The notes beneath the pieces were generated by a model, which saw only the letters and a list, made by a program, of their open reading frames with translations, made no database searches and was not told the origin of the DNA. From an uncultured Dehalococcoidia bacterium (lineage in GTDB: Bacteria; Chloroflexota; Dehalococcoidia; JACQUA01), in NCBI GenBank assembly GCA_964518085.1, contig CAZFEA010000001.1, positions 1 through 29,248 on the forward strand: a stretch of DNA of 29,248 bases, in the 5' to 3' direction. The position numbers were made by a program, and so were the translations under genes. Below are positions 1,965-26,735 of the stretch, one piece after another. The stretch's first letter is position 1, and each line of letters begins with the position of its first letter.

Positions 1965-3194
1965 ATGAACAGGCTGGTACAAATTGAAGACTACGAGCCG
2001 CTGGTTGGGCCGGAGGTGATCGAACGCATCAGACGCAAAGCCTGGCCATTGCGTGACCTTCATGTTGTCAATTTCAACTCCACGTATCATGGCGGCGGCG
2101 TGGCCCAGCTTCTTTCATCTCTGACGCTTCTCATGAACTGCCTGGAAATTAAGACCGGGTGGCGGGCTGTTTTCGGCCCTCCGGACTTCTACAGCGTTAC
2201 CAAAAAGATTCACAATGCCTTGCAGGGCGCGGATATGAATCTGAGTGAACGGAAGATGCAGATCTACGAGGAGGTGATATACGAGAACTCGGTGAGGAAT
2301 CATCTCGATCACGACATAGTAGTCGTGCACGACCCGCAACCGCTTCCGTTAATAAATCACTATCGGAAAGATTCGCCCTGGGTCTGGCGCTGCCACGTCG
2401 ACCTGACCAACCCAAACCCGCAGGTATGGGATTACCTGGTCCGGTTCGTCGAAAAATATGATGCCGTGATCCTGAGCAGCAGGGATTATGCCCGGAAGTT
2501 GAAAACACCCCAGTTGTTTTTTATGCCGGCCATTGACCCGTTCTCCATTACCAACAAGGAACTGAGTGACGGCGAGATGACCGAGCGCCTGAATCACTAC
2601 AGCATTCCCACGGATCTTCCACTGGTGGTGCAAATATCCCGTTTTGACCGCTGGAAAGACCCGGAAGGGGTCATCAAGGCTTTCAAGCTGGTGAGGCAAC
2701 ACATCGAGGCCACCCTGGTGCTGGTAGGAAATGTGGCCGACGACGATCCCGAGGGGCAGGCGGTCTATAAGTCACTGCTTGAACATTGTGGCGAACGCAT
2801 CATCATGCTTAGCGTCCAGGATGGCGCCCTGGTGAATGCCCTTCAGCGGCGTGCTGCCGTGGTGCTGCAGAAATCAATTCGCGAGGGTTTTGGCTTGACG
2901 GTGGCCGAGGCCATGTGGAAAGGAACGCCGGTTATTGGCGGCAACGCCGGGGGCATACGGTACCAGATACAGGATGGGGTAAACGGCTTTCTGGTGTCCT
3001 CGATTGAAGACGCGGCGCAAAGGATTGTCCAGGTTGTCAGGGACAAAGATTTGCGGATGCGGTTGGGGCAAAAAGCCCGTGAAACGGTCAGGGCCAACTT
3101 CTTGCTGACTCGCTACCTGGAACAGTATCTCGACCTGTTCAGCGCCTTCGAGCCACAATTCGGGCTATCCAACAAGATACGGGCTTACCGGTGA
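1965..3194 (+). CDS. treT: GT4 glycosyltransferase, TreT-type trehalose synthase
   Basis: Motifs NSTYHGGGVA, HNALQG, HDPQP, WRCHVD, SRFDRWKD, QKSIREGFGLTVAEAMWK. RBS GGGAGAG. Confidence 0.8.
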   Translation: MNRLVQIEDYEPLVGPEVIERIRRKAWPLRDLHVVNFNSTYHGGGVAQLLSSLTLLMNCLEIKTGWRAVFGPPDFYSVTKKIHNALQGADMNLSERKMQIYEEVIYENSVRNHLDHDIVVVHDPQPLPLINHYRKDSPWVWRCHVDLTNPNPQVWDYLVRFVEKYDAVILSSRDYARKLKTPQLFFMPAIDPFSITNKELSDGEMTERLNHYSIPTDLPLVVQISRFDRWKDPEGVIKAFKLVRQHIEATLVLVGNVADDDPEGQAVYKSLLEHCGERIIMLSVQDGALVNALQRRAAVVLQKSIREGFGLTVAEAMWKGTPVIGGNAGGIRYQIQDGVNGFLVSSIEDAAQRIVQVVRDKDLRMRLGQKARETVRANFLLTRYLEQYLDLFSAFEPQFGLSNKIRAYR

Positions 3195-3197
3195 CTC

Positions 3198-4484
3198 TCA
3201 ATTCAGCTTTTGCGCCAGTATTCCGGTTAACCCCAGGTCGTCGATTCGTTTTCTGATGTCACTGACGGTTTGCGGGTAAAGTCCCAGCCTTATCATCCGC
3301 TCAAGATAGTCCCCCTGGCCGGGACGGCAAAGCTGGTTCAGTCCCTCCTGGGTCCGGTTTAACTCACCCGTGAAACTGATGTAGTCCCCTATCGCGGTGG
3401 TGGCAGGCAAAACGGGTGGTCCGGTGCCGGCCACTTTTCTTGAGGCGTTATGTCCGGCAATGACACCCATGATCATACAGGTGTCCACGCCGCCGATCGG
3501 CCCGATCTTTTCACCACCGACAAAAAGGTTGTCGAAACCTGGCACCCTCAGGCTGTCGTCCCGGTGATGGATGGATACCTCTTTGACGAAGGTATGGACA
3601 CCGCCGCCCATGGGGTCTTCGATCATGGCTGTCTCAAAACCGGGTATGGTGCGCAGGTCGGCCACAGACATATAGCCCATTTTCGAACACTTGGCCATAG
3701 AGCCTATGTCGGAAAGGTTGACGTGCTCGACTTCCTCGTGGGACGAGATATTGGCCATCTTGCCGGCTTTCGAGTAGTCTACGAGGTGTTTGGGAAGGGG
3801 AATCTTCATCTGTCCTTTTTGCTCGAGCTCTTCCCTCAACTCCTTGCCCAGGCTGGCTTTGCTCAAACAGACCGCCAGGCCGAGGAGACCCCTGGTGCCG
3901 TCGGCCCTTCTCTGACTCAACTCCCTGGCCCCGGCTTTGGTGGCGATGCTTACCCGGTTGCCGAACGTGGGACACCTGAAGCTTCCGCACATGACGCATC
4001 CCAGGCCGTAGCGCCGGCAGATGTCCATCCCGCCGGTGGTGCCGGTGCAATCGACAAAGGCGCCGCCTCGCAGGACTTCGCCGCTGGCGAGCCGGACCGC
4101 CTCCAACCGTCCATCCTCTGTCAGCACATCAACCGCCCGGCTCATGAATCGTATGTCGACTCCACAGTCCAGGACCAGTTTCTTGACCGCTGGCTCCGCC
4201 AGGGCGCAATTGTAGATGTATCCGTATTCCATGTCCGGCTCATATAGCCGGTGAAGAATGATGGCGTCCAGTACATCCAGGATATCGCCGCCGGCCATGG
4301 CCCTGAGCTCTTCATTCTGGACCATCCGCCCGGTCATGTTGTAATGTCCGGCTCGGTTTCCTCCGGCCAGAAGCATGTCGGTCCGTTCCAGCAAAATCGC
4401 CTTGAGTCCGGCCCTGGCCACGGCGATGGCCGCGCCACAGCCGGCAAATCCGCCCCCTATGACTATGACAGTGTCTTTAGACAA
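3198..4484 (-). CDS. FAD-dependent oxidoreductase, GidA/TrmFO-related uncharacterised family, with a Cys4 motif
   Basis: VIGGGFAGCGAA Rossmann motif; C-x6-C-x2-C-x4-C (CRRYGLGCVMCGSFRC); C-terminal LFVGGEK...AGHNA. AGGAGG overlaps GTG4490, so TTG4484 (5 nt after the RBS) is the likelier start. Confidence 0.75.
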   Translation of the reverse strand: MSKDTVIVIGGGFAGCGAAIAVARAGLKAILLERTDMLLAGGNRAGHYNMTGRMVQNEELRAMAGGDILDVLDAIILHRLYEPDMEYGYIYNCALAEPAVKKLVLDCGVDIRFMSRAVDVLTEDGRLEAVRLASGEVLRGGAFVDCTGTTGGMDICRRYGLGCVMCGSFRCPTFGNRVSIATKAGARELSQRRADGTRGLLGLAVCLSKASLGKELREELEQKGQMKIPLPKHLVDYSKAGKMANISSHEEVEHVNLSDIGSMAKCSKMGYMSVADLRTIPGFETAMIEDPMGGGVHTFVKEVSIHHRDDSLRVPGFDNLFVGGEKIGPIGGVDTCMIMGVIAGHNASRKVAGTGPPVLPATTAIGDYISFTGELNRTQEGLNQLCRPGQGDYLERMIRLGLYPQTVSDIRKRIDDLGLTGILAQKLN

Positions 4485-4513
4485 ATGCACCTCCTGGGAG
4501 TATTGGCTATCTC

Positions 4514-5074
4514 TCAGGCGAACTGGATCATCCCCAACTTGGTGAACTGAATAGGAACAGTGACCTCGGGCGGAAGTGCCCCGAGTTGATGGAGGGCATA
4601 TTCCTGCTCGTATTTTGTCATGGCCATGACCCCATCTATCGGGATGATGGTCTCATAGCGATAGATGCGCGCTGAGGCGGTAGCGGTGTAAAGCACCGCC
4701 ATGTTGGTGGCCGCCCCGACGATGACCAGGTTCTCTGTCTGCTTGTCCTTCAACAGGCCGTCGAGTTCGCCGCCGGTGAATTTGTCGAAGCCGTTGGGGT
4801 GGATGACTGGCTCGGTTTCCCGTTTCTTCAGGGAGGAGGCAGGCTCTCCCCCGGGTGTGCCCTTGTGGATAAGGGAGATGGTGTAAATAACCGGCACAGC
4901 CAAGGCCCGCGCCCTTTCCAGGAACTCGCTTACACCTGGAAGGAGCAAAGAGCAAAAGACCCTGGGGTCCTGGCATCTGGCGCTCAGATCGAGCACAATA
5001 ATGGCGGTCTTGTTCCGGGCGAGGGTGACTGGCTTTGGCTCCGGTTTGCGGGGTCCACCGTCTTCTATGATCAT
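4514..5074 (-). CDS. Isochorismatase/cysteine-hydrolase fold protein lacking the catalytic Cys
   Basis: TAIIVLDL (Asp), FDKFTGGELDGLLK, LVIVGAATNMAVLYTA, IPIDG. RBS AAGGA. Confidence 0.8.
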   Translation of the reverse strand: MIIEDGGPRKPEPKPVTLARNKTAIIVLDLSARCQDPRVFCSLLLPGVSEFLERARALAVPVIYTISLIHKGTPGGEPASSLKKRETEPVIHPNGFDKFTGGELDGLLKDKQTENLVIVGAATNMAVLYTATASARIYRYETIIPIDGVMAMTKYEQEYALHQLGALPPEVTVPIQFTKLGMIQFA

Positions 5075-5101
5075 TGCTTTCCTTCTTTTATAATCATGCC
5101 A

Positions 5102-7258
5102 CTACGGGACCGGTATCAGTTCGGTATCCAGCAAAATACCGCACGATGGGCAGCAGGTCTGTTCCAGCAAGAAATAACCGGTCAGGTCCGCCATGAGCGC
5201 TCCGGCTTCAGTAGGGGGCAGGAGTTTCACGGTACATGCTTCCTTCCATTTTCTTGGCTCGCTGGAAAGCACGGCCAGGCACCGCTGGCAACGTATGGCC
5301 GAACGGTTCCGGTTAACTATGATCTCCATGTTTCCCCGAAACGGGCGGGTCTTTTCCGTTGTGGGGCGCCTGCCATGGCCGACGGCGCCGCTTTGGGATG
5401 CTCGCGCCGGCTTGAGGCGCGTTGCTGGCCGGCCGTTGAGACGCTGGCGGATAAGGGCCGTCCGTAAGTGGCGCGTGTCATCAAGATTCAATTTGCCTCG
5501 ATCAACGACTACGCCGTAGTACTGTTCGGCCGCCGCGGAGGAAACAAGTCCATTCCTCAGATCTTGCACTACGATCTGCGGGTCCCTTTCCAGGGGGTCC
5601 CCGTAACCGCCTCCGCAGGCCATCCTGAGATAAAGGACATCGTTGACCTGCAGATCGATGTCCTGGTAGGCCAGAGCCATTTTTCTTCCCTTGAGTTCAG
5701 CAAGGTCAACCGGAGGGCGGTTTTGGGCGAAAAACGCCTCCAGCTTCGTACTTTCAAACAAGTTGAGAAGACTGGGCGCTCCGGGGTAACCGCCGAAAAG
5801 ACCCTTCCCCGAGTTCTTCAGCCCGGCCACTCCGAGGGCAACTACCTTGATTTTTCCTTCCGCGGGCTTATAGGGGGCAAGGGCTACCTCGGTCCCTGCG
5901 CCGCCCCGGTACTTTCCGGCGCCGGCGCCATCCACAATATGCCGTCGGAAAAGGTAGATGACGGGGAAGTTGAGCTCAACCCACTCCACGTTGTGGCATG
6001 TCATCCCGATGCTGCCGGCGCTGGACGAGTTCATACCATCCTTACAGGATGTTGCCCCGCTGCCTCCTGATTCCAGCAAGGTGGAGACGTAATATTTTCC
6101 GTACTGGCTGATGCCGGCGTGCCTGGCGAAGCGGCCCATCAAGGTCGGCGCCATGACCTCGCGTTTCCACTTTTCGCTTGCCGCCACTGCCTGCATCAGT
6201 ACCGAAGCGGCAAGGTGTTTGACGGCCTGGGCGCCGGAGGTGGTGTTCAGGGATACCGGGGCCGGGTTCTGGACATTGACCACGCACCCTTCAGGTGCGC
6301 TCACCTCCATCGGGCCGAAGGCGCCCTGGTTGCGCGGGATGTCATAGGCGAAAGTGCACAGGACTTCCTGGAAGCAACAACCGAAGGTGGCATGATAGGG
6401 CAGGTTGATGCCTTTTTCGGCCTGCCTGTCCGTCCCGGCAAAATCGAAAATCAGCCGGTCGCCTTTCTTGTTCAACGTCAGCTTTACCTTCCAGGATTTG
6501 TCGGCCTGGATGGACAGAGAATCAGTCCACGAACCGTCGGGAATTTCAGCTATCCTCTTCCGTAAGATAGATTCCGAATAGCGGATCATCTGGGCCGAAA
6601 CGGCCTGGATCAGTTCCAGCCCGTACTGCTTGATCATATCCTGCATTCTGGCCTTGGCGACGTTGTTGGCCGCAATTTCACATTTCAGGTCCAGGCCCAC
6701 CATCACCGGTTGCCGGGTCATGTTGACCACTGTCCTGAAAACGTCGTTTCGCGTCTGCCCCCGCTCGACCAGCTTGATCCCCGGGATCCTGATACCCTCG
6801 TGGCATATTTCGGTTGCCCCGGGGGAGTTCCCTCCGGGTGACATGGCACCAATGTCCATTACATGGACAAATGTGGCGCTCCAGCCGACGAGGCGGCCTT
6901 GGTAGTGAATCGGGGATACGACATACATGTCTGACTGGTGAATCGCGGCCAGATAGGGGTCATTCAGCAAGAACATGTCGTCGGGATAAATGTTGCCGTC
7001 CTTTCCGAACTGGTCGATAATCTTCTTCACGGCAAACCCGGCGCAAACGGCGTGCATTCCCATCATCGCCTGGCCCACCGATAGCACCTCGCCGGAAGGT
7101 GTGTACAGCGCCGCCAGGTAGTCTTTGAGCTGCGTGGTATTAACCGTGCCCCCCACGTGTTCCAGGGTAATAGCAATTTCCTTGGTGATCTGGTAGAGGC
7201 GATGAGACAGTATTTCAAAAGTAATGGGATCGACAGTTGACACCGGCGGCGCCTTCAT
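5102..7258 (-). CDS. Hydantoinase B/oxoprolinase/acetone-carboxylase-alpha family subunit fused to an acetone-carboxylase-gamma-like Cys4 domain
   Basis: DPITFEI, NDPYLAAIHQSD, HVMDIG, EGIRIP, GAGKYRGG, GGGYGDPLERD; C-terminal CQRC...WK...CCPSCGILLDTE. RBS AGGAG overlaps the upstream TAG. Confidence 0.88.
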   Translation of the reverse strand: MKAPPVSTVDPITFEILSHRLYQITKEIAITLEHVGGTVNTTQLKDYLAALYTPSGEVLSVGQAMMGMHAVCAGFAVKKIIDQFGKDGNIYPDDMFLLNDPYLAAIHQSDMYVVSPIHYQGRLVGWSATFVHVMDIGAMSPGGNSPGATEICHEGIRIPGIKLVERGQTRNDVFRTVVNMTRQPVMVGLDLKCEIAANNVAKARMQDMIKQYGLELIQAVSAQMIRYSESILRKRIAEIPDGSWTDSLSIQADKSWKVKLTLNKKGDRLIFDFAGTDRQAEKGINLPYHATFGCCFQEVLCTFAYDIPRNQGAFGPMEVSAPEGCVVNVQNPAPVSLNTTSGAQAVKHLAASVLMQAVAASEKWKREVMAPTLMGRFARHAGISQYGKYYVSTLLESGGSGATSCKDGMNSSSAGSIGMTCHNVEWVELNFPVIYLFRRHIVDGAGAGKYRGGAGTEVALAPYKPAEGKIKVVALGVAGLKNSGKGLFGGYPGAPSLLNLFESTKLEAFFAQNRPPVDLAELKGRKMALAYQDIDLQVNDVLYLRMACGGGYGDPLERDPQIVVQDLRNGLVSSAAAEQYYGVVVDRGKLNLDDTRHLRTALIRQRLNGRPATRLKPARASQSGAVGHGRRPTTEKTRPFRGNMEIIVNRNRSAIRCQRCLAVLSSEPRKWKEACTVKLLPPTEAGALMADLTGYFLLEQTCCPSCGILLDTELIPVP

Positions 7259-7267
7259 GACTATCTC

Positions 7268-9370
7268 CTACGACCGCAGAAAGATGACGATATTGCGAAA
7301 TTCATCCATGGTTGCTCGTGTGCCGGGGTTTACCACGACCGTGGTTACGGGTGTCTCGATTATGGCCGGGCCGGGCGCTTCGAATCCGGGTTGCATTCGT
7401 TCGAAATCGTAAATGTCTGTCGGTATAAACCCCCGGTGTTCTTCGAAGTATACCTCTCTACTGCCTTTTCGCGACCGTTCAGCCGGCGCCTTCTTGATGG
7501 CTTCTCTCTTGATATTGGGTTTTCTCAGGCGACCGATGGCGTCAATACGGAAGGTGGTGATCTCTTTTCCTGCCTCGGCATAGCCCGACCCTTTGCCATA
7601 GGACTTTTCATACAGTTCATCGAACAGAGAGTACAGCTTCTCCATGTCCCCCGGACTAATATCAGTCATTCCCGCCGGAAAGGGCACGTTCAACTCGTGG
7701 ACCTGGAACCGGTATCTCATATCTACGCTGCGAACGATTTCGATATCGTCGTTTCCAAACCCCGCGGCATGGAGTTGCTCCAGCGCCTGTGCGCACAGGC
7801 TGGAGAAGTTGGCATTGACGCGGTCAACATCTACCGGGACCATCAGCCTGTCTGACCTGGCAAATTGATGGACTACGTCGGAACTTATCAGCCCCATCGC
7901 CCCCTGGACGGAGGCGGTCATGGGGACGACGATCTTTTTGATCCCGAGTTCCGCCGCGAACCTTCCGGCGTGCACCGGTCCGGCGCCGCCGTAAGCAAAA
8001 AGGGCGAAGTTCCGCGGATCGTTGCCTCTCTCGACCGTGGCGCGGCGCACGAGATCACACATATGAGCATTGGCTATGCGAAAGATGCCGTTGGCGGCCT
8101 CAGTTTCGCCCAGGTTCAGCGGGTGGGCAATCTTCTCTCTAATGGCTTGCAGCGCTGCCTGTTTGTCCAGCCTCATTCGTCCACCCAGGAAATAGTCCTC
8201 GTTGAGATAACCCAGCACCAGGTCGGCGTCAGAGACGGTGGGTTCCGTCCCTCCCATCCCGTAGCAGACCGGTCCCGGTTTCGCCCCGGCGCCTTGAGGT
8301 CCCACTTTCAGCAAGCCTGTCTCGGAATCGATCCAGGCGATGCTTCCCCCGCCGGCTCCAATCGATTCGATCCATATTTTCGGCGACAAAATGTTATAGC
8401 GCAGGATAACCGGTGCATATTCCCTTTCGCACGTGCCATCCCGGATTATGCCAACCTTGAAGGTAGTGCCACCCATATCCGTAGCCAGGATGTTGCGTTC
8501 GCCGCTCAGGTCACCAAGGAACTTGCTGCCCAGCACTCCGGCGGCGGGCCCGGACTCAATGGTACCGATGGCGTTCCGGCTGGTCGCCCGCATGCTCAGG
8601 ACGCCGCCGTAGGCCTGCATTACCATAGGTTCTTCCCGCAACCCCCTGGAGTGCAACGCTTTCAAAAGGTCCTGAAGGTAAGAAGAAATTTCGGGGCCGA
8701 TATAGGCGCTGAAAATGGTGGTGGCAGTGCGCTCATATTCGCCAAGGAGAGGGGCCACCTCGCTCGAAATGGCTACATGCACCGATGGGTGATTCGCTTT
8801 CAGTATGCCGGCCAGCGCCTTTTCGTGGCGGTCATTGGCGAGGGACCATAGGAGGCAGATGGCGACCGAGTCCACCCCCTTTTCGATTAACTCTTTGACA
8901 ACCCGGGCAGCATCCGCCGTGTCGAGGCTAATCAGGACGTCACCCTTGTAGTCGATACGCTCATTCACTTCTGTGATGAGAGGCCTGGTAACCAGGGGTT
9001 CTGGCTTGGTAAGGGCTGACAGGTGAGACGCCTCGGTTTCCGTCAGTCCTTCGGTCACCTTGCTTCGCATTATGAGGATGGTGTCCGCGAAGCCCCTGGT
9101 GGTTATAAGGCCGGTCCTGGCCCCGGAACGCGTTATGAGGATGTTTTCTCCCACCGTGCAGGCATGGAAAAAGTACTTTGTCCGCCGGATGAGCTCATCT
9201 TCGCTGGCCAAACCAAGTTTTTCTGACAGGTCGCGAACCGAGTCGATGACGCCGATAGAGAAGTCGCCGGGCGTGGACAATGCTTTTCCCAGGGACAACC
9301 GGCCGTGTTCATCGACTCCTACACAGTCGGTAAATGTCCCGCCAATGTCCACCCCTATTATGTATTCCAT
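7268..9370 (-). CDS. Hydantoinase A/oxoprolinase (ATP-binding, acetone-carboxylase-beta family) subunit
   Basis: IGVDIGGTFTD, SGPAAG, DMGGTTF, IGAGGGSIAW, GPVCYGMGGTEPTVSDA, GGAGPVH, DMRY. Confidence 0.92.
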   Translation of the reverse strand: MEYIIGVDIGGTFTDCVGVDEHGRLSLGKALSTPGDFSIGVIDSVRDLSEKLGLASEDELIRRTKYFFHACTVGENILITRSGARTGLITTRGFADTILIMRSKVTEGLTETEASHLSALTKPEPLVTRPLITEVNERIDYKGDVLISLDTADAARVVKELIEKGVDSVAICLLWSLANDRHEKALAGILKANHPSVHVAISSEVAPLLGEYERTATTIFSAYIGPEISSYLQDLLKALHSRGLREEPMVMQAYGGVLSMRATSRNAIGTIESGPAAGVLGSKFLGDLSGERNILATDMGGTTFKVGIIRDGTCEREYAPVILRYNILSPKIWIESIGAGGGSIAWIDSETGLLKVGPQGAGAKPGPVCYGMGGTEPTVSDADLVLGYLNEDYFLGGRMRLDKQAALQAIREKIAHPLNLGETEAANGIFRIANAHMCDLVRRATVERGNDPRNFALFAYGGAGPVHAGRFAAELGIKKIVVPMTASVQGAMGLISSDVVHQFARSDRLMVPVDVDRVNANFSSLCAQALEQLHAAGFGNDDIEIVRSVDMRYRFQVHELNVPFPAGMTDISPGDMEKLYSLFDELYEKSYGKGSGYAEAGKEITTFRIDAIGRLRKPNIKREAIKKAPAERSRKGSREVYFEEHRGFIPTDIYDFERMQPGFEAPGPAIIETPVTTVVVNPGTRATMDEFRNIVIFLRS

Positions 9371-9400: not shown

Positions 9401-10570
9401 TTACTTTTGCATCACCGGCCTGAATATTTCTTTAGCTAGCTGGATCAGCTTGGGTCTCTCGATCATTTGCTCTTCACTGTCAGTCGATATCAGTTTGGCC
9501 CCTTCCTGGGGCACGTATGCCGGATCGATTCCTGAAGTGTCTACGTCGGCCCGGGCGCTGGGAGGTCCGTAGTTCTTCTGAAACAGGGCTTGCGTGTCTT
9601 TAGTCAGTAGCCAGTTGACGAACACTATGGCCGCATTGGGGTTGGCAGGCCGGTCGATGAGGGATACCACGCCGCCGCTGTAGGTCAAGCCAATTCCCTC
9701 ATGGGCGGCCTTCCATTTTATGGGAGCCCCGGCCCTCTTGAACTCGTCGAAGGTCTGGACATCCGGAGCAATAGACAAGGGGTATTTGTTTCTGGCCAGC
9801 CACTCAACCTGCTGGCGCTTGTCGGCGATCAGTAGCGGCTCTTGCTTTACAAACTGCTGCAGGTAGTCTTTGCCTCCATCTTGACCAAAAATGGCAAACA
9901 TCAACGCCACCCAATAGCTACCTCCCCCCGATATGGTTGGGTCCATTGTGGTTATCTTGCCTTTCCACTTGGGGTCGAGGAGGTCGCGGTAAGACTTAAT
10001 TTCGGCTTCCTGGACCGCGTCGGAATTCGCAGCCAGAAAACTGGCAGTCCGATGAACGAATGCCAGGGACAGTCCTGTTTGATCGACCAAGGGGAGTTCC
10101 TTGCCGCGCCATTTGGTAGCATCGGTAACCTCCGGCAAGATCAGGGCAGGCTTCAACGGTTGTAACACGCCCTGTGGCTTCATGATCAGCAGCAGTGTCG
10201 AAGTTCCCGCGATCACGGCATCAGCCAGGTATAGCCCGGCCCTTCTTTCGGCCTGGATGCGGGCCATGGACTCCTCACCTCTGCCAACGATAAAATCGAT
10301 ATTGATGCCGAACTGTTGCCTGAACGCTTCTTTTAGAGCCTGAGTGGTCGCCGGGTTGGCCGAGGTGTGGACCACCACCGTACCTTCGGTCCTGGCTTTG
10401 GCGACGGTGCTGTCCCACCGGGCTTGCCACGAGGATTTTTCCGGGCCGGTTTGCGCCGCCGTGGTTGGTTTGGTTGGACCAGGCGACAAAGGAGCCGCCG
10501 GCCCCCCACAGGCAACAGCTATGGTGAGAAGAATACCGGCAAAAGGCAATAATAGATGACTGGCTTTCAT
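9401..10570 (-). CDS. Extracellular solute-binding lipoprotein (Fe3+/thiamine/polyamine-type, COG1840-like), no cognate permease nearby
   Basis: Signal peptide with lipobox IAVAC, Pro/Thr-rich linker, WKGKITTMDP, NPNAAIVFVNWLLTKDTQ. ATGA overlap with the upstream gene. Confidence 0.85.
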   Translation of the reverse strand: MKASHLLLPFAGILLTIAVACGGPAAPLSPGPTKPTTAAQTGPEKSSWQARWDSTVAKARTEGTVVVHTSANPATTQALKEAFRQQFGINIDFIVGRGEESMARIQAERRAGLYLADAVIAGTSTLLLIMKPQGVLQPLKPALILPEVTDATKWRGKELPLVDQTGLSLAFVHRTASFLAANSDAVQEAEIKSYRDLLDPKWKGKITTMDPTISGGGSYWVALMFAIFGQDGGKDYLQQFVKQEPLLIADKRQQVEWLARNKYPLSIAPDVQTFDEFKRAGAPIKWKAAHEGIGLTYSGGVVSLIDRPANPNAAIVFVNWLLTKDTQALFQKNYGPPSARADVDTSGIDPAYVPQEGAKLISTDSEEQMIERPKLIQLAKEIFRPVMQK

Positions 10571-12168
10571 TTGACCTCCATTCTCAATTTGACACAGTCG
10601 ACATTCAAGGGCTTTTCGTCACGGTCCAGTTGTACTCTGGTAGTTTTATAAAACAAAGGGTCTTTGGTCGGGTAGTCTTCACGATAGTGGGGACCCCGGC
10701 TTTCCTTCCGGAATTCAGCGGACCTGAGCAGGGCTTCGGCCAGCAGTAACATGTTCTCCACTTCAATAGCTTCCTTCAAGTCGGGGGTATTATCTGCACT
10801 CAGATTCTTCTTTTCTTCTTTTATCCGCGTCAGCTCATCGATACCGGCGAGCAATGAAGGTCCACTCCTTACCGGGCTCATGCGTTTATTGACCAGCTCG
10901 CGAATCTTCTTTCTTAGCTCCAGCGGCCGCCTTTTTCCGTTCTTCAGCGATATTTCTTGTAGAAACTCCTTTTGCCTGTCAGTCAGCCCGGTTCTCTCTT
11001 GTTCCAACTCCTTGCATGTTTGGGCCGCGTTCTTTCCAGCTTCGATCCCCATGACCAGGCACCTGGTCAAATGGTTTACACTATTCTCCCCGGCGTAGGT
11101 ACCGCTGACCATTTCTCCCGCGGCGAAAAGCCCGCGCAGTTGGGTCTCCCCTGTCTTGTCGGTGGTAACCCCTCCCAGGTATGTGTGCCCGATGGGAATC
11201 ATTTCCACCGGAAATCGCTTCACATCGCGGGGACATTTTGCCAGTTTCATTCTGGTACGAGGGTGCATCTTGGACCAGTCGGCGGACGATATCCCGGTCA
11301 TGTCCAGGAAAACGGGTCCCCCTTCCATCTCCATGATCTTCTCCGACTCTTCAAACTTGAAAGAAGCATAGCGGCATACCTGTTCCCATCTTAGACCTAG
11401 ATACTTTCGCACCAGGTCTTCACCCTTCTTGTTCACCAGACGGACGCCCTTGACCGTTATGATTTCGCTGATTATGTCCCCTTGCCAGGGGAAGGCCACC
11501 CCCACAAAACCGACTTCAAACTGTATGAATTCCATATTGGTTAAGGGTAAGCCTGCTCTCAAAGCCATGGCATATCCGTCGCCGACGAGCGACCTGGGGC
11601 TGGAGGTCTCTTTGAACAGCGATGCCCCTCCGCCCGTCGCCAGAATGGTGCATCCCGCTCTGAGGACCAGGACGTCCCCGTTCTGATCAAGGCCTGCAGC
11701 GCCAATACATTGTCCTTCCCGGACCAGTAAATCTACTATGAGGCAGTTGCCGATGGCGCCAGTCCCCGATTCCTTGAGTTTTTTCCTGAGAGCCTCAACT
11801 ACGGTGACCCCGTCCTCTTCGTCCTCTCTCCTTGGTGTCAAATACCACTCTCCGTAGGCCTCCAGGGGAACGCCGAGGTTTTTGAGCCATAGAATACCCT
11901 CTTTTGCCCGTTCAAGATGCATTTTGACCTGTTGCTCGTCAAAAATGTATCTTTGGGGACTTGAATCGTATCCGGGTAAGTTAAGCTCTTGAGTGGTGTA
12001 TTTGAACCAGGCGCCGGAAAAGTAAGTGGCGCTCTGTTTGCCGATGCCGGCTTTCGATACCAGAAGAACATCACGCCCTTCCTCTCTGGCTCTTATAGCG
12101 GCAGCCAGCCCGGCTATTCCGGAACCGATAACCAGCACGTCCGTGTTTCGTTCTTTGGAATCCAGCAT
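10567..12168 (-). CDS. SdhA/FrdA/NadB-family flavoprotein with a non-canonical active site
   Basis: DVLVIGSGIAG, LATGG, GDGYAMA, NMEFIQF, HTYLGGV, LFAAGE, RKESRGPHYREDYP. ATG12168 preceded by AAGGGA is preferred over the track start at 12210. Confidence 0.85.
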   Translation of the reverse strand: MLDSKERNTDVLVIGSGIAGLAAAIRAREEGRDVLLVSKAGIGKQSATYFSGAWFKYTTQELNLPGYDSSPQRYIFDEQQVKMHLERAKEGILWLKNLGVPLEAYGEWYLTPRREDEEDGVTVVEALRKKLKESGTGAIGNCLIVDLLVREGQCIGAAGLDQNGDVLVLRAGCTILATGGGASLFKETSSPRSLVGDGYAMALRAGLPLTNMEFIQFEVGFVGVAFPWQGDIISEIITVKGVRLVNKKGEDLVRKYLGLRWEQVCRYASFKFEESEKIMEMEGGPVFLDMTGISSADWSKMHPRTRMKLAKCPRDVKRFPVEMIPIGHTYLGGVTTDKTGETQLRGLFAAGEMVSGTYAGENSVNHLTRCLVMGIEAGKNAAQTCKELEQERTGLTDRQKEFLQEISLKNGKRRPLELRKKIRELVNKRMSPVRSGPSLLAGIDELTRIKEEKKNLSADNTPDLKEAIEVENMLLLAEALLRSAEFRKESRGPHYREDYPTKDPLFYKTTRVQLDRDEKPLNVDCVKLRMEVK

Positions 12169-12261
12169 CTGTCTGTTTCCCTTAAAGCAGGTTTGAGAAT
12201 TGTACTGCAATTGCTTATGGAGTGTGACTGTCGGCCAGGATGTTCATGACCTGGTCCGAAC

Positions 12262-12336: not shown

Positions 12337-12366
12337 ATAATAGATTATTGGCGCTGTCTGTGTCAA
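12337..12366 (-). promoter_or_regulatory. Sigma70-type promoter for operon A
   Basis: Minus strand TTGACA (12366-12361), 18 nt, TATTAT (12342-12337). Confidence 0.55.
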
Positions 12367-12487: not shown

Positions 12488-12994
12488 ATGAAGCGGGACA
12501 CCAGTCCACAAACTGTAAAGTTCAGGGTTAACGGAAAGCCGTTTGAGCTTTTGCTCGGCTACCAGGTGACCGAGTGGGACACATTGGCCGAGACCCTGAG
12601 GAAAACCCTGGGGCTTACGGGGACGAAGATTGGCTGCGACAGTGGCGAGTGCGGCGCCTGTACTGTCATCATGAATGGGCAGTCTGTGCTTTCCTGCACC
12701 ACTCTGACGGTGGAATGTGATGGGAAAGATATTACTACCATTGAGGGATTGAGAGACCCGGTAACGGGGAAACTGCATGCCCTTCAGCAGGCATTCATCG
12801 ACCACGATGGAATGCAGTGTGGTTTCTGTACCCCGGGAATGATCATGCAGGCTAAAGTCCTGCTTGATAAGAACCCCAGTCCCACTGAAAAGCAAGTCAA
12901 AGAGGCACTGTCCGGGAACCTGTGCCGCTGCGGCTCTTATCAGAAGATCGTCGGGTCGGTGTTAGCCGCCGCATCCCTGATCAAACGCAATTAA
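12488..12994 (+). CDS. Xanthine dehydrogenase/CoxS-family small subunit (2x[2Fe-2S])
   Basis: GTKIGCDSGECGACTV...SC; QCGFCTPGM; NLCRCGSY. Confidence 0.95.
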   Translation: MKRDTSPQTVKFRVNGKPFELLLGYQVTEWDTLAETLRKTLGLTGTKIGCDSGECGACTVIMNGQSVLSCTTLTVECDGKDITTIEGLRDPVTGKLHALQQAFIDHDGMQCGFCTPGMIMQAKVLLDKNPSPTEKQVKEALSGNLCRCGSYQKIVGSVLAAASLIKRN

Positions 12995-12997
12995 AAG

Positions 12998-15343
12998 ATG
13001 CAAGAGCAACTTTCCTTCATAGGAAAACGTCTGCCCCGGTTTGGCGCTATCGATATCGTCACCGGAAGCGCCCGATTTACCCAGGATGTGTTCCTGCCGG
13101 GAATGCTCCACGGCACTCTGCTGTGCAGCCCGCACCCGCATGCAAAGATTGTTAGTATCGAGACCGGCGAAGCCGAAGCTCTGCCCGGTGTGAGGGCGAT
13201 CATAACCCATAAAGACACGGAGCATTTCCCGGATGCCGCATCCACCCGTGACGTTGAGCCGCTGAGAATTCTAGGCGGCACGCTTTATTTTGTAGGGGAC
13301 TATGTGGCGGCGATAGCGGCCGAAACCGAAGAGATAGCTGAGCAAGCGGCGCAGCTCATACAGGTGCAATACCAGCTACTGCCGTCTATTTTCGATACTG
13401 ATGGGGCGATGAAGCCCGAAGCCGCCGTCCAGTACGGTTGCTGGCCGTGGAACGTATGGAACTCCAGGGAACGCGGCGCACCCTCGCTGGAGATCGACAA
13501 GACAAAGCTGACCGGCGGCAATGTGGAGAAAGGCTTCGAAAATTCACATGCCATCGCAGAGGAGGAAGTTCACACCCAGGTTGGGCTTCATGCCCCGCTC
13601 GAGACAGAGACCATCATCGTGGTATGGGATGCCAATGGCATCTGCAACGTATGGTCCAAGGAAAGTCCCCATCGCCTGGTCGAGTGGTTCTGGCCGATCC
13701 TCTCCAGGGTTTACGGGACGCCCATGAACAAGGTCAGGGCTATCTGCCACCATGCCGGGGGACGCTTTGGAAAGCACGTGGATTTGCGAATCCTGGCAAT
13801 GGCCACGGAGTTGGCCAGGAAGACCGGCAGGCCGGTCCGGTTCTGTAATTTGAGGGATTGGGAATATCACTGGGCTCGAGCCATGACCCACAGCCTGGTA
13901 AGAATGGGCGGCAAACAAGACGGCACAATCACTGCCATCGACATGAAGACCATCACCAACTTCGGCATGGCCCATCGTTCTGCCCGCATTGAGCTGGGGA
14001 ATATCGGGCGAGCCCCGAACTGGACGTGGAAATGTCCTGATACCCGTTATGTGAACTACGGGGTATTCACTAATTCCGTCGGCACCGGCTCATTCCGCGG
14101 CTTTGGGTCAACCCAGGGGCATTATGCAGTCTCCCAGGCGTGCGATGTGCTGATAGAGAAGTTAGGGGTTGATCCTGCCGAGTTTTATTTGAAAAACCAC
14201 TCGGGCGCCGGGGACTGGTGGGAACACCAGAAACAGACGCCGAGCGGACTCGACGAGTGCATCGGTAAGGCCACCGACGCCATAGGCTGGAAGCAGAAGC
14301 GGCACAAGCCCGGGGAGAAGACGCTTTCCGACGGAAGAAAGCACGGGATCGGCATGGCGATTGCTGTCCATAGCGGAGGTGGCTCCACCACCCCCGGGGC
14401 GGCCCTGGTCGAAGTTAATCGGGACGGCTCCGTTCAACTATTTGCTGCCGGTGATGAAACGGGGCAGGGAGTTTACACTGTCGAGGCTGCCATTTGCGCC
14501 GAGGAACTGGGGGTGAGATTTGAAGATGTGAGGGTGGTGCGCGCCGATACCGAGTCGGCGCCGCTGGCATCTTTCTCGGCGCACAGTCAGAATACCTGCA
14601 ACATGGGAGGTGCAGTGCAGCTTGCGGCCAGAGACGCTAAGAAAAAGCTTCTGGCCCTGGCGGCCAGTGAGCTGGGTGTCCAACCGGAAGAACTGCAGGC
14701 GAGGGAAGGATGGGTCTATGTCATCGCCGATCCGGTCAGGCGAATCGAGATCAGCGCGGTCACGGCGAAGTACGTCGGTTCCCGGGCAGTTGTCAATTCG
14801 AAGCCAATTGGATGTCGGATTGATGGGTACGGCTGGTACGCACAGTGGGAGAACGTACCGTGGACGCCAGAGGGGCCGGAAGGTTCGCTGGTACCCAAGA
14901 CCTGGATGTGTCACATAGCAGAGGTAGCTGTGGACACGGAGACCGGAGAAGTGGAGATATTGAAATACGTAAATGCCCAGGATGTTGGCAGGGCCATAAG
15001 CCTCAATACGGCTGAGAATCAATTACTTGGATCAGCCTTGATGGGTATCGGCTATGCGCTCAAAGAGGACTTTGTGCGCGACCCGAAAAATGGACAGGGA
15101 CTCAACCCGGGGTATCTGGACTACAAGATACTGACCCACCTCGACGTGCCTCCCACCACAGCCATCCTTGTCGAGTCTGTCAACCCGAACACCCCGTTCG
15201 GGGCCAAGGGAATTGGCGAGGGGTCCCTGATTCCCGGCGCTCCAGCCGTTGCCCATGCTATTTACAATGCAATCGGTGTGCGCCTGAACAGTTTGCCGAT
15301 GACGCCCGATAAGGTGCTCAGGGCGCTGGGTAAGATTAGCTAA
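12998..15343 (+). CDS. Xanthine dehydrogenase/aldehyde oxidoreductase-family molybdopterin-binding large subunit
   Basis: SPHPHAKI, HAPLE, GGRFG, GSFRGFG, ETGQG, VDTETGEV, Y-K-I, GAKGIGE (catalytic Glu). No AYxCSFR CO dehydrogenase motif. Confidence 0.93.
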   Translation: MQEQLSFIGKRLPRFGAIDIVTGSARFTQDVFLPGMLHGTLLCSPHPHAKIVSIETGEAEALPGVRAIITHKDTEHFPDAASTRDVEPLRILGGTLYFVGDYVAAIAAETEEIAEQAAQLIQVQYQLLPSIFDTDGAMKPEAAVQYGCWPWNVWNSRERGAPSLEIDKTKLTGGNVEKGFENSHAIAEEEVHTQVGLHAPLETETIIVVWDANGICNVWSKESPHRLVEWFWPILSRVYGTPMNKVRAICHHAGGRFGKHVDLRILAMATELARKTGRPVRFCNLRDWEYHWARAMTHSLVRMGGKQDGTITAIDMKTITNFGMAHRSARIELGNIGRAPNWTWKCPDTRYVNYGVFTNSVGTGSFRGFGSTQGHYAVSQACDVLIEKLGVDPAEFYLKNHSGAGDWWEHQKQTPSGLDECIGKATDAIGWKQKRHKPGEKTLSDGRKHGIGMAIAVHSGGGSTTPGAALVEVNRDGSVQLFAAGDETGQGVYTVEAAICAEELGVRFEDVRVVRADTESAPLASFSAHSQNTCNMGGAVQLAARDAKKKLLALAASELGVQPEELQAREGWVYVIADPVRRIEISAVTAKYVGSRAVVNSKPIGCRIDGYGWYAQWENVPWTPEGPEGSLVPKTWMCHIAEVAVDTETGEVEILKYVNAQDVGRAISLNTAENQLLGSALMGIGYALKEDFVRDPKNGQGLNPGYLDYKILTHLDVPPTTAILVESVNPNTPFGAKGIGEGSLIPGAPAVAHAIYNAIGVRLNSLPMTPDKVLRALGKIS

Positions 15344-15344
15344 G

Positions 15345-16328
15345 ATGAGGCCGTTTGAGCACGTCAATGCCCCGACGCTGGAAGATGCGATTGCGGCGGC
15401 GCAGGGGAACTCCAGAATCATTGCCGGCGGCACAGATTGCTTGAGCATCTTGAAAAACGGCCTCCTTCCCGTCTATCCTGAGGTCCTGGTCAATATCAAG
15501 ACCATCCCCGAGCTGGAATATATTCGCCCGGACTCCGACGGGCTCAGGATAGGGTCCATGACCAGGCTTGTCGCTGTGGAAGATTCTTCCGTTATTAAGA
15601 CTGAATACCCGGCCCTGGCCGAGGCGGCGCGGTTGATAGCCTCACCGCAAATACGAAACATGGCTACCGTTGGCGGCAATTTGTGCCAGGAAGTGCGCTG
15701 CTGGTACTACCGGCGTTCCCCGCGCACCGGGAGAGACTATGTGTGCTTTCGGAAGGGGGGAAAGGTATGCTTTGCCGTTGACGGAGACAACCGGTACCAT
15801 GCTATTATCGGAGGCAAACGTTGTTTTGCTGCCTGCCCCTCAGACCTGGCCGTTGTCCTGACAGCCCTGGATGGCAGGATTATCGTTCAAGGGAAGGCCG
15901 GAGAAAAGAGCATTTCCATGTCTGATTTCTACAGCCCCATGGGAAATGTCCTGAGTCCTGATGAGATAATAAAAGAAATTAGAGTTCCCACCCCTCCGAG
16001 GGGGTCCAGGCAGGCTTTCATCAAATTCCGGTTGCGTAAGGCCATCGATTTTGCGGTGGTCAGCGTGGCTTCGGTCGCTGTGATCGACAATGGTGTCTGC
16101 CGCGACGCGAGGATTGCCCTTGGGGCAGTAGCGCCTGGTCCCCTGCGGGCAACCCGAGCGGAAGAAACCATCAGAGGCAAGACCGTAGAAATTGCGACAG
16201 CAGAGGCGGCGGCAACGGCTGCGGTGAAAGGCGCGAAACCGCTGTCTATGAACGCCTATAAAGTCGAGATAGCAAAGGCGCTGGTGAAGAGAGCCTTGCT
16301 CTCAGCAACGTCAGCCGTGACGAAATAA
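15345..16328 (+). CDS. FAD-binding medium subunit with a PaoB/HcrB-type Cys insertion
   Basis: IAGGTD, IRNMATVGGNLCQ, RCWYY...CFRKGGKVC...RCFAACPSD, RKAIDFA, LGAVAP, NAYKV. Confidence 0.9.
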   Translation: MRPFEHVNAPTLEDAIAAAQGNSRIIAGGTDCLSILKNGLLPVYPEVLVNIKTIPELEYIRPDSDGLRIGSMTRLVAVEDSSVIKTEYPALAEAARLIASPQIRNMATVGGNLCQEVRCWYYRRSPRTGRDYVCFRKGGKVCFAVDGDNRYHAIIGGKRCFAACPSDLAVVLTALDGRIIVQGKAGEKSISMSDFYSPMGNVLSPDEIIKEIRVPTPPRGSRQAFIKFRLRKAIDFAVVSVASVAVIDNGVCRDARIALGAVAPGPLRATRAEETIRGKTVEIATAEAAATAAVKGAKPLSMNAYKVEIAKALVKRALLSATSAVTK

Positions 16329-18084: not shown

Positions 18085-19220
18085 TCATTTACGCAGGGCG
18101 GAGAAAATCTCGCCTACCCTGTCGCGGATCGCCGCCTGGGTGCGCAGGTAGGCTTCATCGGGAACGCTCGCCCCCGCGGGTGGCAGCACCAGCGGATCGA
18201 AACTGTCGGTGGGAACATCCACTCGCTGCGACGGGAAGCCCTGGGCCGGGGCCCACACCGAGGCGCCTTCCTTGCTCACCAGCCAGTTGACAAAGAGTTT
18301 TACCGCGTTGGGGTGAGGGGCCTTATCGAAAACGAAGAGATTACCGGCGCCCGAAGCCAGGAAAGGCGGCTCCTTCAAAATGGTGAAAGCTATCGGGGCG
18401 CCCAATTTCTTGAACTCGGTGAACATGGCCGAGCTCTGTCCGATGCCTACAGGGTATTTCCCGCGGGCCACCCATTCCAGCATCATGCGCTGGTCCCTGG
18501 TCATGACCGGTTCATTGGCCGCCAACTGGCGCAGTATTTCCAGCGTCCCGTCGACGCCGAAGATTTCCTTGGCCATGAGGGTGATGAAGCTGAGGGATGC
18601 GCCGGGGACGGCCGGGTCCGACAGCACCATCTTGCCCTTCCACTTCGGCCCGACGTAATCCAGGAAGGAGGTTATTTCTCCTTCCCTTATTATGTCGGTG
18701 TTGTGGATAGAGGGCCGGTTGGCCATGGCCACAGTTACCAGGAGATGGCGGTCTTCGTCCAGGTAGGGAATCTTCCCGTTGCGCCACCTGCCCGGGTCGG
18801 TGACCTCGGGCAAGACCAGCAGTTCCGGCAGGGGAACAGTGATCGCCATGGGCTTGATGTCAACAAAAAATGGACCGTTTCCGGTCAGGCCGGCGTCGGC
18901 CCAGTAGAGTCCGGCCCTTCTCTCGGCCTTGATCTTGGCAATGACCTCGGTGGCGCGTCCCTCAGTGGCTTCGATGTCTATGCCGAATTTTGCCTTGAAG
19001 GCCCGCTGGATGGCGGCTTTGGCCGGGCCCCAGTCCGAGCCAACAGGTTCACCGTGCCCTCCTTCTGGGCGGCCTTGACCAGCTCGTCCCACGAGTTGGC
19101 CGGGGGCGCCGGCGCCCTGACCGGCGGCGTGGGGGCGCCCGTGGGCTGGGCCGGCGCCGCGCAGGCGACGATCAGGACCATCAGAAACGCTGCACCAATC
19201 AAACTTGAACACTTTTTCAT
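18085..19220 (-). pseudogene. Solute-binding lipoprotein paralog split by a 1-nt deletion at about 19039-19041
   Basis: ATG19220 (RBS AGGAG) gives MKKCSS...IVAC...QKEGTVNLL in one frame; the homologous remainder SDWGPAKAAIQRAFKAKFGIDIE...FSALRK is in the -1 frame. Junction: GTG AAC CTG TTG GC TCG GAC TGG. Confidence 0.8.
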
Positions 19221-19430: not shown

Positions 19431-19479
19431 TGTCACCTGTTGCCTGTTACCTGTTGCCTTTTTCCTTTCGCCTTTTACC
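19431..19479. repeat. Seven degenerate tandem heptamers TKTYDCC
   Basis: TGTCACC TGTTGCC TGTTACC TGTTGCC TTTTTCC TTTCGCC TTTTACC; the last base overlaps the stop codon of the 19479-20237 gene. Confidence 0.8.
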
Positions 19480-20237
19480 TATTGATACAGCGTCCGGAAA
19501 ATCCTCCCCCAGGCCTTGACCGGCTCTTTGATACCCAGCGCCTTGAGTCCGGCCCAGATGGTGACCTGCCGGCTGTGAATGGCCGGGACGCCGCAGTCCT
19601 GTTCCAGACGATCAATGACCCACGGGGGACACCAGGCGCCGCAAGGGAGATATATGGCTTCCGCCTGAGGCGCCTCCAGGAACGCCTGCCTGCCCACGGC
19701 ATAAGCCGCGCTCCGCGGCAGGTCGTCGATATCGCGGTTCAGCGTCAGGTTGAGACTCTTTATATGGATTACCTCGAAGCCGCTGGACTCCAGGAATCTT
19801 TTGGTCCGCTGGTCCGATTCCTGGTTCATGGGCGAAGCGATAACCAGCTTTTTAACTTTCAAGGTGCGAAGGGCATCGACGGCGGCAGTCAGAGAGGTGG
19901 TTGCCGGGACCCTGGCCACCTCTTTCACGCGCCGGATGATTTGCTGGTCAGCCCCCGGTCCCTGCATCGAGACCAGCGGCGTCCCTTCGACGAAAATGAA
20001 TTGGGAGCCGGCCGCGGCCAGTCGCTTGACGGCATCGTCCAGCTTGGACAGGGCCGTTTCCACCTGGTCGTCGGTGAGGGAGGTTATTCCCAGGGTGGCA
20101 ATCTTCAGTTCCAGGCCGTCGGGCACGGCGGAATGGAAGTCCACCAGGGCCAGAGACGATGGGGTGGCGGGGCAGACCCAGCCCAGTTTTCCCCTCCATC
20201 CGGCTACGCCGTCGGTTGCTGGTATGTCAGCAGGCAT
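19479..20237 (-). CDS. Asp/Glu racemase superfamily, maleate isomerase/arylmalonate decarboxylase-like protein with a single catalytic Cys
   Basis: KLGWVCP, FVEGTPL, VPATTSLTAAVDALRTL, IYLPCGAW, GVPAIHS...WAGLKALG. RBS AAGGAG. Confidence 0.85.
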   Translation of the reverse strand: MPADIPATDGVAGWRGKLGWVCPATPSSLALVDFHSAVPDGLELKIATLGITSLTDDQVETALSKLDDAVKRLAAAGSQFIFVEGTPLVSMQGPGADQQIIRRVKEVARVPATTSLTAAVDALRTLKVKKLVIASPMNQESDQRTKRFLESSGFEVIHIKSLNLTLNRDIDDLPRSAAYAVGRQAFLEAPQAEAIYLPCGAWCPPWVIDRLEQDCGVPAIHSRQVTIWAGLKALGIKEPVKAWGRIFRTLYQ

Positions 20238-26402: not shown

Positions 26403-26735
26403 TCAGTCGGCGCCGGCGGCGAATCTCACCGCCAGGTCTTTGATGAGGGGACGGTTTGGCACCGGCTCGATGCACATCTCTTGTGTCGCCGGGGTGTCAC
26501 AGGCCAGGACCACCTTCTTGTTCACCGAGACGGAGCAGATGGAGCACACGATCTTGCAGCGGCACGACTCGCGAAAGGAAAGACTGCCGTCCAGGTGGCT
26601 GTAGATGTAGCGGATGGTGTCCAGTACGCTGCGGTTTTGCCAGCCCTCGGGTGGGACGACGTATGTCTCATACCTGGGTTCCTTATCAAGTTCCGGGTCA
26701 AAACGACGTATGGTTACCCTGGCCTCAGTTGCCAC
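26403..26735 (-). CDS. SdhB/FrdB N-terminal [2Fe-2S] domain-only protein
   Basis: IRRFDPELDKEPRYETY, SVLDTIRYI, LSFRESCRCKIVCSIC...LAC, IEPV..RPLIKDLAV then stop. GTG start 6 nt after GGAGGA. Confidence 0.85.
   Translation of the reverse strand: MATEARVTIRRFDPELDKEPRYETYVVPPEGWQNRSVLDTIRYIYSHLDGSLSFRESCRCKIVCSICSVSVNKKVVLACDTPATQEMCIEPVPNRPLIKDLAVRFAAGAD

Follow-up and report, generated by a model that had tools for sequence, protein, structure and literature searches.

To our knowledge, the characterised enzymes that carry a Succ_DH_flav_C domain all act on carboxylic acids, which they hold by one conserved arginine, or on sulfite, as does adenosine phosphosulfate (APS) reductase. UrdA, a urocanate reductase, is a periplasmic enzyme linked to flavin mononucleotide (FMN) and lacks this domain. 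In this family member from Shewanella, retargeted to an N-heterocycle, the QFHP histidine is replaced, Asp388 and Glu177 hold the N-H groups of the imidazole and remodelling is confined to the far end of the pocket; yet the full carboxylate clamp (Arg560, His520 and Arg411) stays, as an Arg-His-Arg clamp does in all characterised carboxylate-reducing members (PMC7921117). Here we describe a protein of the same superfamily that has lost the clamp arginine. Its gene (10567-12168, minus strand; product of 533 amino acids, hereafter P0001) lies in a 29,248-nucleotide window, the whole stretch of DNA that we analysed, which belongs to contig CAZFEA010000001.1 of assembly GCA_964518085.1, from an uncultured Dehalococcoidia bacterium; all positions are those of the forward strand. 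The reading that we favour, and consider slightly better supported than not, is that P0001 is a flavoprotein without a carboxylate clamp, neither SdhA nor NadB, which acts on a nitrogen-bearing compound other than a dicarboxylate, at the front end of a hydantoinase cassette.

The reading frame is intact, from an ATG at 12168 to a TGA at 10569-10567. An alternative TTG start at 12210 would add 14 residues; homologues begin at the ATG, and an AAGGGA motif is found 9 nucleotides 5' of it. Domain scores and fold both place the product in the SdhA/FrdA/NadB flavoprotein superfamily: Pfam domains FAD_binding_2 and Succ_DH_flav_C are detected at 132.8 and 68.8 bits (gathering thresholds 20.4 and 20.8, respectively), and a Foldseek search with the AlphaFold2 model (pLDDT 86.9, pTM 0.90) retrieves SdhA/FrdA chains at template modelling (TM) scores of 0.8-0.86. 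Membership of any named family within it is another matter. The best hidden Markov model (HMM) match in NCBIfam is TfrA (NF004900), with 243.1 bits for a cut-off of 718, followed by sdhA_frdA (TIGR01812; 206 bits, cut-off 567.3), nadB (TIGR00551; 195.6 bits, cut-off 452.75) and AprA, the APS reductase alpha subunit (NF005331; 119.7 bits, cut-off 557), so that P0001 stays below half of the cut-off for all these equivalog models.

Canonical versions of the two enzymes are encoded elsewhere in the host genome (G000, a 3.5-Mb assembly of 517 contigs, 89% complete). A genuine nadB (C15:3859-5430) scores 557.3 against the TIGR00551 cut-off of 452.75 and sits beside nadA (396 bits), the pair spanning 2907-5430 of locus L091; a genuine sdhA/frdA (C216:1262-2959) reaches 755.8 bits for a cut-off of 567.3 and retains the histidine for covalent FAD attachment, along with the complete set of four substrate residues (FAD, flavin adenine dinucleotide). 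Because all scores of P0001 are far below cut-off and canonical genes exist elsewhere, to label the gene nadB or sdhA would be a mistake, as the first-pass annotation of the window had suspected; the finding thus guards against a predictable annotation error. The surroundings of the gene agree. Neither nadA nor nadC is found near P0001, whose operon contains a binding protein, hydantoinase A and B subunits and other catabolic genes. The same annotation had seen no iron-sulfur or membrane partner, and Pfam and the annotation of the window indeed reveal no SdhB-type or membrane-anchor gene in the operon or near the flavoprotein, nor any TfrB-like gene in the window.

P0001 would be a soluble, FAD-dependent member of the SdhA/FrdA/NadB/TfrA superfamily; it has the flavin motifs GSGIAG, ATGG and GLFAAGE and a C-terminal ESRGPHYR, an instance of the ESRGxHYR motif. 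The covalent-FAD histidine is missing, also in line with the earlier annotation: the RSHT of SdhA aligns with KQSAT, and Ser46 (codon 12031-12033, minus strand) is at or beside the position of the histidine. Flavin binding is therefore probably non-covalent.

We compared the substrate site with those of E. coli SdhA, FrdA and NadB (from NC_000913), complemented by a phmmer alignment to Protein Data Bank (PDB) entry 1NEK and a BLASTP alignment to NadB. The SdhA/FrdA set His242, Arg286, His354 and Arg399 reads, in P0001, glutamate, possibly Lys271, a retained histidine and no counterpart of Arg399. The QFHP histidine (His242 in SdhA, His244 in NadB) aligns with Glu218 (codon 11515-11517, minus strand) in a segment reading IQFEV, where QFEV occupies residues 216-219. 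The histidine of HxxxGG (His354 in SdhA) is kept as His328 (codon 11185-11187, minus strand) in HTYLGG (328-333). Both observations had been made in the first-pass annotation, and alignment with E. coli NadB and SdhA upheld them: it restored neither histidine nor arginine at the altered positions, Glu218 staying in place and the GANR arginine (Arg399 in SdhA, Arg386 in NadB) having no counterpart in P0001.

A further proposal of that annotation, the replacement of the GANR arginine by glutamate, stands in part. The arginine is lost and an acidic residue is present in the segment, but the exact equivalence is probably one residue off. Four alignments each place the arginine differently, opposite Ser363, Asn362, a gap or Glu361; whichever is followed, P0001 has no lysine or arginine between Gly351 and Arg369, a segment that includes Glu361. 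Since some clade members read GER or AER here, the arginine probably pairs with Asn362 and the preceding asparagine with Glu361. Most likely, then, Glu361 replaces the asparagine of GANR and position 362 is the arginine site; the two codons (11083-11088, minus strand) belong to AGENS (359-363) and stand for the Asn-Arg of the motif. The proton-shuttle RD motif is also changed, reading FKFEE after a short insertion, and alignments disagree on the counterpart of its arginine (Arg266, Lys271 or a gap). Position 271 is basic, lysine or arginine, in every clade member, and the next residue is a near-invariant phenylalanine (leucine in P0122). As only this position stays basic across the clade, we take Lys271 (codon 11356-11358, minus strand), in a [K/R]-F motif, as the probable counterpart of the proton-shuttle Arg286 of SdhA. 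In UrdA numbering, the counterpart of Arg560 is absent from P0001, that of His520 is present and that of Arg411 is uncertain.

Each of the closest described systems thus shares part of this architecture. TfrA (NF004900) and the TfrA-like 'QFYP' proteins of anaerobes have the same length, the same two-domain layout and no covalent-FAD histidine, but P0001 differs from TfrA in the lack of a TfrB-type iron-sulfur partner and in its changed GANR arginine and RD motif; TfrA itself (P0101) retains QFHP, unlike P0001. E. coli SdhA and FrdA (PDB 1NEK, 1KF6 and 5VPN) have the fold, the FAD motifs, the HxxxGG histidine and ESRGxH in common with P0001, whereas identity is only 22-25%, the RD motif becomes KFE after the insertion and SdhB, SdhC and SdhD are missing. 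E. coli NadB (PDB 1CHU, 1KNP and 5KXJ) is, like P0001, a stand-alone soluble flavoprotein without a covalent-FAD histidine; at 26% identity, its His244 and Arg386 are both lost in P0001.

How unusual are these changes? They go beyond chance. The GANR arginine is kept in 248 of the 260 nearest relatives (95%); the exceptions number 12, nine of them from the clade of P0001. At the position of the QFHP histidine, these 260 relatives mostly have tyrosine (141) or phenylalanine (35), then histidine (22) or glutamate (10). Loss of the arginine together with glutamate at the QFHP position occurs only in P0001 and in one other protein, P0002. What sets the clade apart is therefore the missing arginine, since most relatives keep it and those without it cluster in one clade, whereas a glutamate at the QFHP histidine position is less special and occurs elsewhere. 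Glu361, Phe272 and His328 are invariant in seven aligned clade sequences, with lysine or arginine at position 271; two other members, P0122 and P0124, lack Glu361. His328 is invariant in four of our alignments (A1-A3 and A6), and in another (A4) P0124 and P0125 read glutamine.

The clade is very rare. A word-indexed search of 5.8 billion proteins returned P0002 at 46% identity and three sequences (P0003-5) at 35-39%, all others being at or below 34%; an exhaustive profile search of 1.84 billion representative proteins placed about seven sequences above the continuum, and nothing in 185,579 species genomes exceeded 33% identity to P0001. In our tree, P0001 pairs with its sister P0002 (support 99) within a clade of ten members (99), itself nested in a TfrA-like QFYP group (98). 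Canonical SdhA, FrdA, NadB and TfrA branch elsewhere, as do the large expansions of the host genome itself. A genome of the same genus (G001) and one of the same family (G002) contain no ortholog of P0001 (best matches 34% and 32%, respectively) and none of the GidA-like gene of its cassette (best 46-48%), hence a patchy distribution. We found no paper on this clade or on a cassette combining SdhA-like and hydantoinase genes, and the protein atlas offered only generic names and no described equivalent. P0001 belongs to a rare, unstudied branch of a known enzyme fold in an unusual modular context. A clade that is conserved and syntenic, lacks the clamp arginine and carries acidic residues would extend what is known of the reactions open to the complex II flavoprotein fold.

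The flavoprotein gene comes first in an operon on the minus strand, followed by genes for a binding protein, hydantoinase A, hydantoinase B, an isochorismatase-fold protein and a GidA-like flavoprotein. Upstream, in the divergent intergenic region, we note a candidate sigma-70-like promoter on the minus strand (12337-12366; TTGACA, an 18-nucleotide spacer and TATTAT), whose 11 of 12 consensus positions are a consensus match only. The orphan lipoprotein solute-binding protein (9401-10570, minus strand; Pfam SBP_bac_8/11/6/1, lipobox IAVAC) comes directly after P0001: its ATG overlaps the flavoprotein stop as ATGA, with GGAGG just 5' of its start. Hydantoinase/oxoprolinase A (7268-9370) and hydantoinase B (5102-7258; Pfam Hydantoinase_B, 388.5 bits), the isochorismatase-fold protein (4514-5074) and the GidA-like flavoprotein (3198-4490) follow, all on the minus strand and, for the A subunit and the isochorismatase-fold protein too, assigned by Pfam. 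The GidA-like gene is the best conserved of the cassette, with 70-76% identity to its orthologs in loci L001 and L100, and its C-x6-C-x2-C-x4-C motif is invariant in the family alignment. This family is uncharacterised, its named relatives coming from Dehalococcoidia/Chloroflexota and Bacillota. A complex prediction for P0001 and the GidA-like flavoprotein (score 0.01, mark 0.32) speaks neither for nor against binding.

On the opposite strand, a three-subunit molybdoenzyme of the xanthine dehydrogenase family (12488-16328, plus strand; 2Fe-2S, molybdenum cofactor (MoCo) and FAD subunits, according to Pfam and NCBIfam) is transcribed divergently, and beyond it lies an AtzE/GatA-like amidase with an AtzE-like score of 294.6-298.4 bits. 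The window holds two hydantoinase A/B pairs. Directly after the second pair, a gene at 19479-20237 (minus strand) matches the Pfam family Amdase (arylmalonate decarboxylase) with 102.5 bits.

Several features of this neighbourhood recur in other loci. On the contig of P0002, the flavoprotein is accompanied by a GidA-like protein (70% identity), a binding protein and hydantoinase A (43%) and B (37%). Clade members also occur beside GidA-like flavoproteins and binding proteins in two further loci (L009 and L097), and the GidA-like gene adjoins clade members at four loci. In L009, as many as five copies of it stand in tandem beside the clade members. L097 (G012:C54, 636-12427), from a genome of the same class, has a clade member 36% identical to P0001 that is divergent to genes for a GidA-like protein, a binding protein, an Amidohydro_2 protein and MoCo subunits, followed by a DctPQM tripartite ATP-independent periplasmic (TRAP) transporter and then by the imine deaminase RidA (L-PSP). 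This genome encodes no fewer than three complete clade members as well as fragments (34-40% identity), and its GidA-like genes number ten.

The closest cassette of all is L100 (GCA_041642995.1, 413-11287), which has the same G+C content and encodes orthologs of hydantoinase A (80% identity), hydantoinase B (71%), the isochorismatase-fold protein (72%) and the GidA-like flavoprotein (76%). In place of an SdhA-like gene, its front carries one gene for a Cupin_2 protein and one for a binding protein. Binding proteins are just 36-40% identical across these loci, and the molybdoenzyme is absent from both the P0002 locus and L100. In another locus (L102) we observed repeated units of cupin, GidA-like and binding-protein genes. 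The layouts of L100 and L102 suggest swappable front-end modules, and since L100 shares the orthologous back end but has a cupin where the flavoprotein sits, we regard the flavoprotein, together with the binding-protein gene that overlaps it, as a probable exchangeable front end placed on a conserved back end. We thus rejected an obligatory role of the flavoprotein as a subunit of that hydantoinase module, the orthologous module of L100 lacking any SdhA-like gene.

What does the back end do? Hydantoinase A is about as close to carboxylases (acetophenone carboxylase, acetone carboxylase) as to enzymes that open lactams or hydantoins (caprolactamase, N-methylhydantoinase); its best NCBIfam match is the caprolactamase alpha subunit, at 567 bits. 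The isochorismatase-fold neighbour was considered as a carbamoylsarcosine-, biuret- or maleamate-type amidase and rejected: compared with PDB 5HA8 and 6KUA, its nucleophilic cysteine is an alanine (NMAV in place of DFCV or DICV) and the lysine of the triad is a proline. Its L100 ortholog reads NMAV as well. Most probably, therefore, the protein is not an amidase of the nicotinamidase or carbamoylsarcosine amidase type.

Is the loss of the clamp compatible with the usual chemistry of the superfamily? The flavin motifs, His328 and a basic residue 271 are retained, so this chemistry fits P0001. The redox core that it keeps (FAD motifs, His328, the ESRGxHYR motif and the conserved basic Lys271) would support a proton-coupled transfer of hydride at flavin N5, amounting to the oxidation or reduction of a CH-CH or CH-NH bond by two electrons. 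Whereas the fold, the residue changes, the exclusion from known families, the rarity of the clade and its recurrent neighbours are established, we infer the roles of Lys271 and the glutamates, the class of substrate and the direction of the reaction. The clamp being dismantled (arginine absent, Glu361 beside its site, QFHP histidine turned into Glu218), the substrate would not be succinate, fumarate or aspartate. Loss of the arginine and gain of glutamates point to a compound without a carboxylate at the clamp site and with N-H or cationic groups, most likely a nitrogen-bearing one of the kind of cyclic amines and imines, lactams or ureides. The glutamates would hold its N-H or cationic group and His328 its carbonyl, if it has one. 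The flavoprotein and binding protein, as a front end, would then feed a back end made of the hydantoinase A/B-type enzyme, dependent on adenosine triphosphate (ATP), the isochorismatase-fold protein and the Cys4 GidA-like flavoprotein. A cationic or amine/imine substrate had been put forward in the first-pass annotation, and the idea is plausible, if unproven.

Several observations weigh against the nitrogen-compound reading. The pocket is hypervariable across the clade, with glutamate, tyrosine, histidine or phenylalanine at position 218 and asparagine, glutamate, serine, arginine or leucine at position 362, so the glutamates may not reflect a shared mechanism; Glu218 is common to just one other known clade sequence, P0002. 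The side chain of Glu361 may point away from the substrate if this residue stands in for the asparagine of GANR. The link of P0001 to hydantoinase chemistry is indirect, since the back end of L100 works without the flavoprotein, and a simple pathway of ring opening followed by amide hydrolysis is weakened by the missing amidase nucleophile of the isochorismatase-fold neighbour. The nearest solved relatives of the binding protein bind anions (pyridoxal phosphate, ferric iron), although this is a weak match of 45 bits. No electron partner was identified for P0001. Finally, a substrate cannot be read from sequence.

The nitrogen-compound reading has two specific versions, amine-to-imine oxidation and C=C reduction or desaturation, which computation cannot separate. 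In the latter, which we regard as possible but tentative, P0001 would be a C=C reductase or C-C desaturase acting beside an amide, imide or ketone carbonyl, on an unsaturated lactam, a pyrimidine-like or hydantoin-like ring or an enone. The reaction would parallel fumarate reduction, His328 and the glutamates reading a C=O/N-H pair instead of a carboxylate. The nearest relatives of P0001, by HMM score and in the tree, are TfrA-like enzymes, and its basic residue 271 and His328 match the proton-delivering and polarising machinery of fumarate reductase. 3-Ketosteroid dehydrogenases, of the FAD_binding_2 fold, desaturate beside a ketone without an arginine clamp, and ureide-type neighbours are at hand in the AtzE-like amidase, the arylmalonate decarboxylase-like protein and the two hydantoinase pairs. 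However, we know of no characterised member with a Succ_DH_flav_C domain that acts on amides, the part given to the glutamates is conjectural and the isochorismatase-fold protein of the operon is no cysteine amidase.

The other version, which we rate as rather doubtful, makes P0001 a dehydrogenase of amines or cyclic amines: a NadB-like oxidation of a C-N bond would yield an imine, the glutamates holding the protonated amine, and the imine would either undergo hydrolysis or be turned into a lactam through hydroxylation by the adjacent molybdoenzyme, the lactam then being opened by the ATP-dependent hydantoinase-type enzyme. NadB shows that this fold can oxidise C-N bonds, and needs an additional glutamate, Glu121, for amine oxidation. 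A molybdenum hydroxylase gene is divergent here and another is found near the clade member of L097, together with RidA, and the top NCBIfam match of hydantoinase A is to a caprolactamase. Yet the clade branches with TfrA-like C=C enzymes and not with NadB, the molybdoenzyme is missing in the P0002 locus and in L100, caprolactamase is structurally no closer than acetophenone carboxylase or N-methylhydantoinase, and the binding protein resembles anion binders.

That resemblance speaks for a third explanation, in which the substrate is still a carboxylic acid (a mono-acid enoate, a hydroxy acid or an amino acid), held for example by Lys271, His328 or Arg369, with the glutamates as structural or second-shell residues. 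Some clade members do keep an arginine at position 362 (GER or AER), and the clade member of L097 lies beside a TRAP transporter, a type of transporter that usually carries organic acids. We nonetheless find this unlikely: a carboxylate would be repelled by a pair of acidic residues located in the pocket or close to it, and the clamp arginine is present in 95% of the nearest relatives and in every characterised carboxylate-reducing member (PMC7921117). That P0001 is after all a genuine L-aspartate oxidase or succinate dehydrogenase/fumarate reductase flavoprotein, or a decayed, inactive paralogue, is very improbable, for although it has family-level similarity, nadB and sdhA models are among its NCBIfam hits and some of the 44 paralogues in the genome may be decaying, its equivalog scores are all below half of the cut-offs, a canonical nadA-nadB pair and sdhA exist elsewhere, and an intact frame, flavin motifs, conserved clade positions and synteny with its 46%-identical sister P0002 speak against decay.

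A bolder form of the nitrogen-compound reading, for which we claim only a tentative standing, is that the [K/R]F clade constitutes a new class of the SdhA fold without carboxylate substrates, that P0001 and its binding protein open an undescribed anaerobic route for N-heterocycles or cyclic amines into a conserved module, and that the organism carries dozens of interchangeable front ends.

The gene is also a tractable entry to a striking genome, for which relatives of the binding proteins and GidA-like proteins indicate Chloroflexota or Dehalococcoidia. This genome encodes 44 SdhA-like paralogues and some 170-200 paralogous lipoprotein binding proteins, besides roughly 20 hydantoinase pairs and some 31 hits to molybdenum hydroxylases. 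Only two of its 43-44 SdhA-like genes are canonical, the others having widely diversified pockets; matches to such genes number 33 in the genome of the same genus and 14 in that of the same family. One family of lipoprotein binding proteins is expanded (207 phmmer hits, 173 of them at least 300 amino acids long, including 9401-10570, 18085-19212 and 28476-29219 in the window), most with a lipobox and a Pro/Ala-rich linker, and just 20 hits were obtained for the permease domain BPD_transp_1. A binding-protein gene is present within 400 bp on the same strand for 16 of the 44 SdhA-like genes. MoCo subunits of the xanthine dehydrogenase family account for 31 hits, hydantoinase A for 19 and hydantoinase B for 23. 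Together, these expansions suggest a modular degradation of many small nitrogenous or recalcitrant compounds.

The window itself contains a second SdhA-like flavoprotein (26403-28479, minus strand), which scores 386 bits with the TfrA model, displays the motifs HQCFP, LRDP, HYTIGG and GAERID and belongs to a six-member paralogue group in the host genome. It is accompanied by a small Fer2_3 2Fe-2S partner and by its own upstream binding protein (28476-29219, minus strand).

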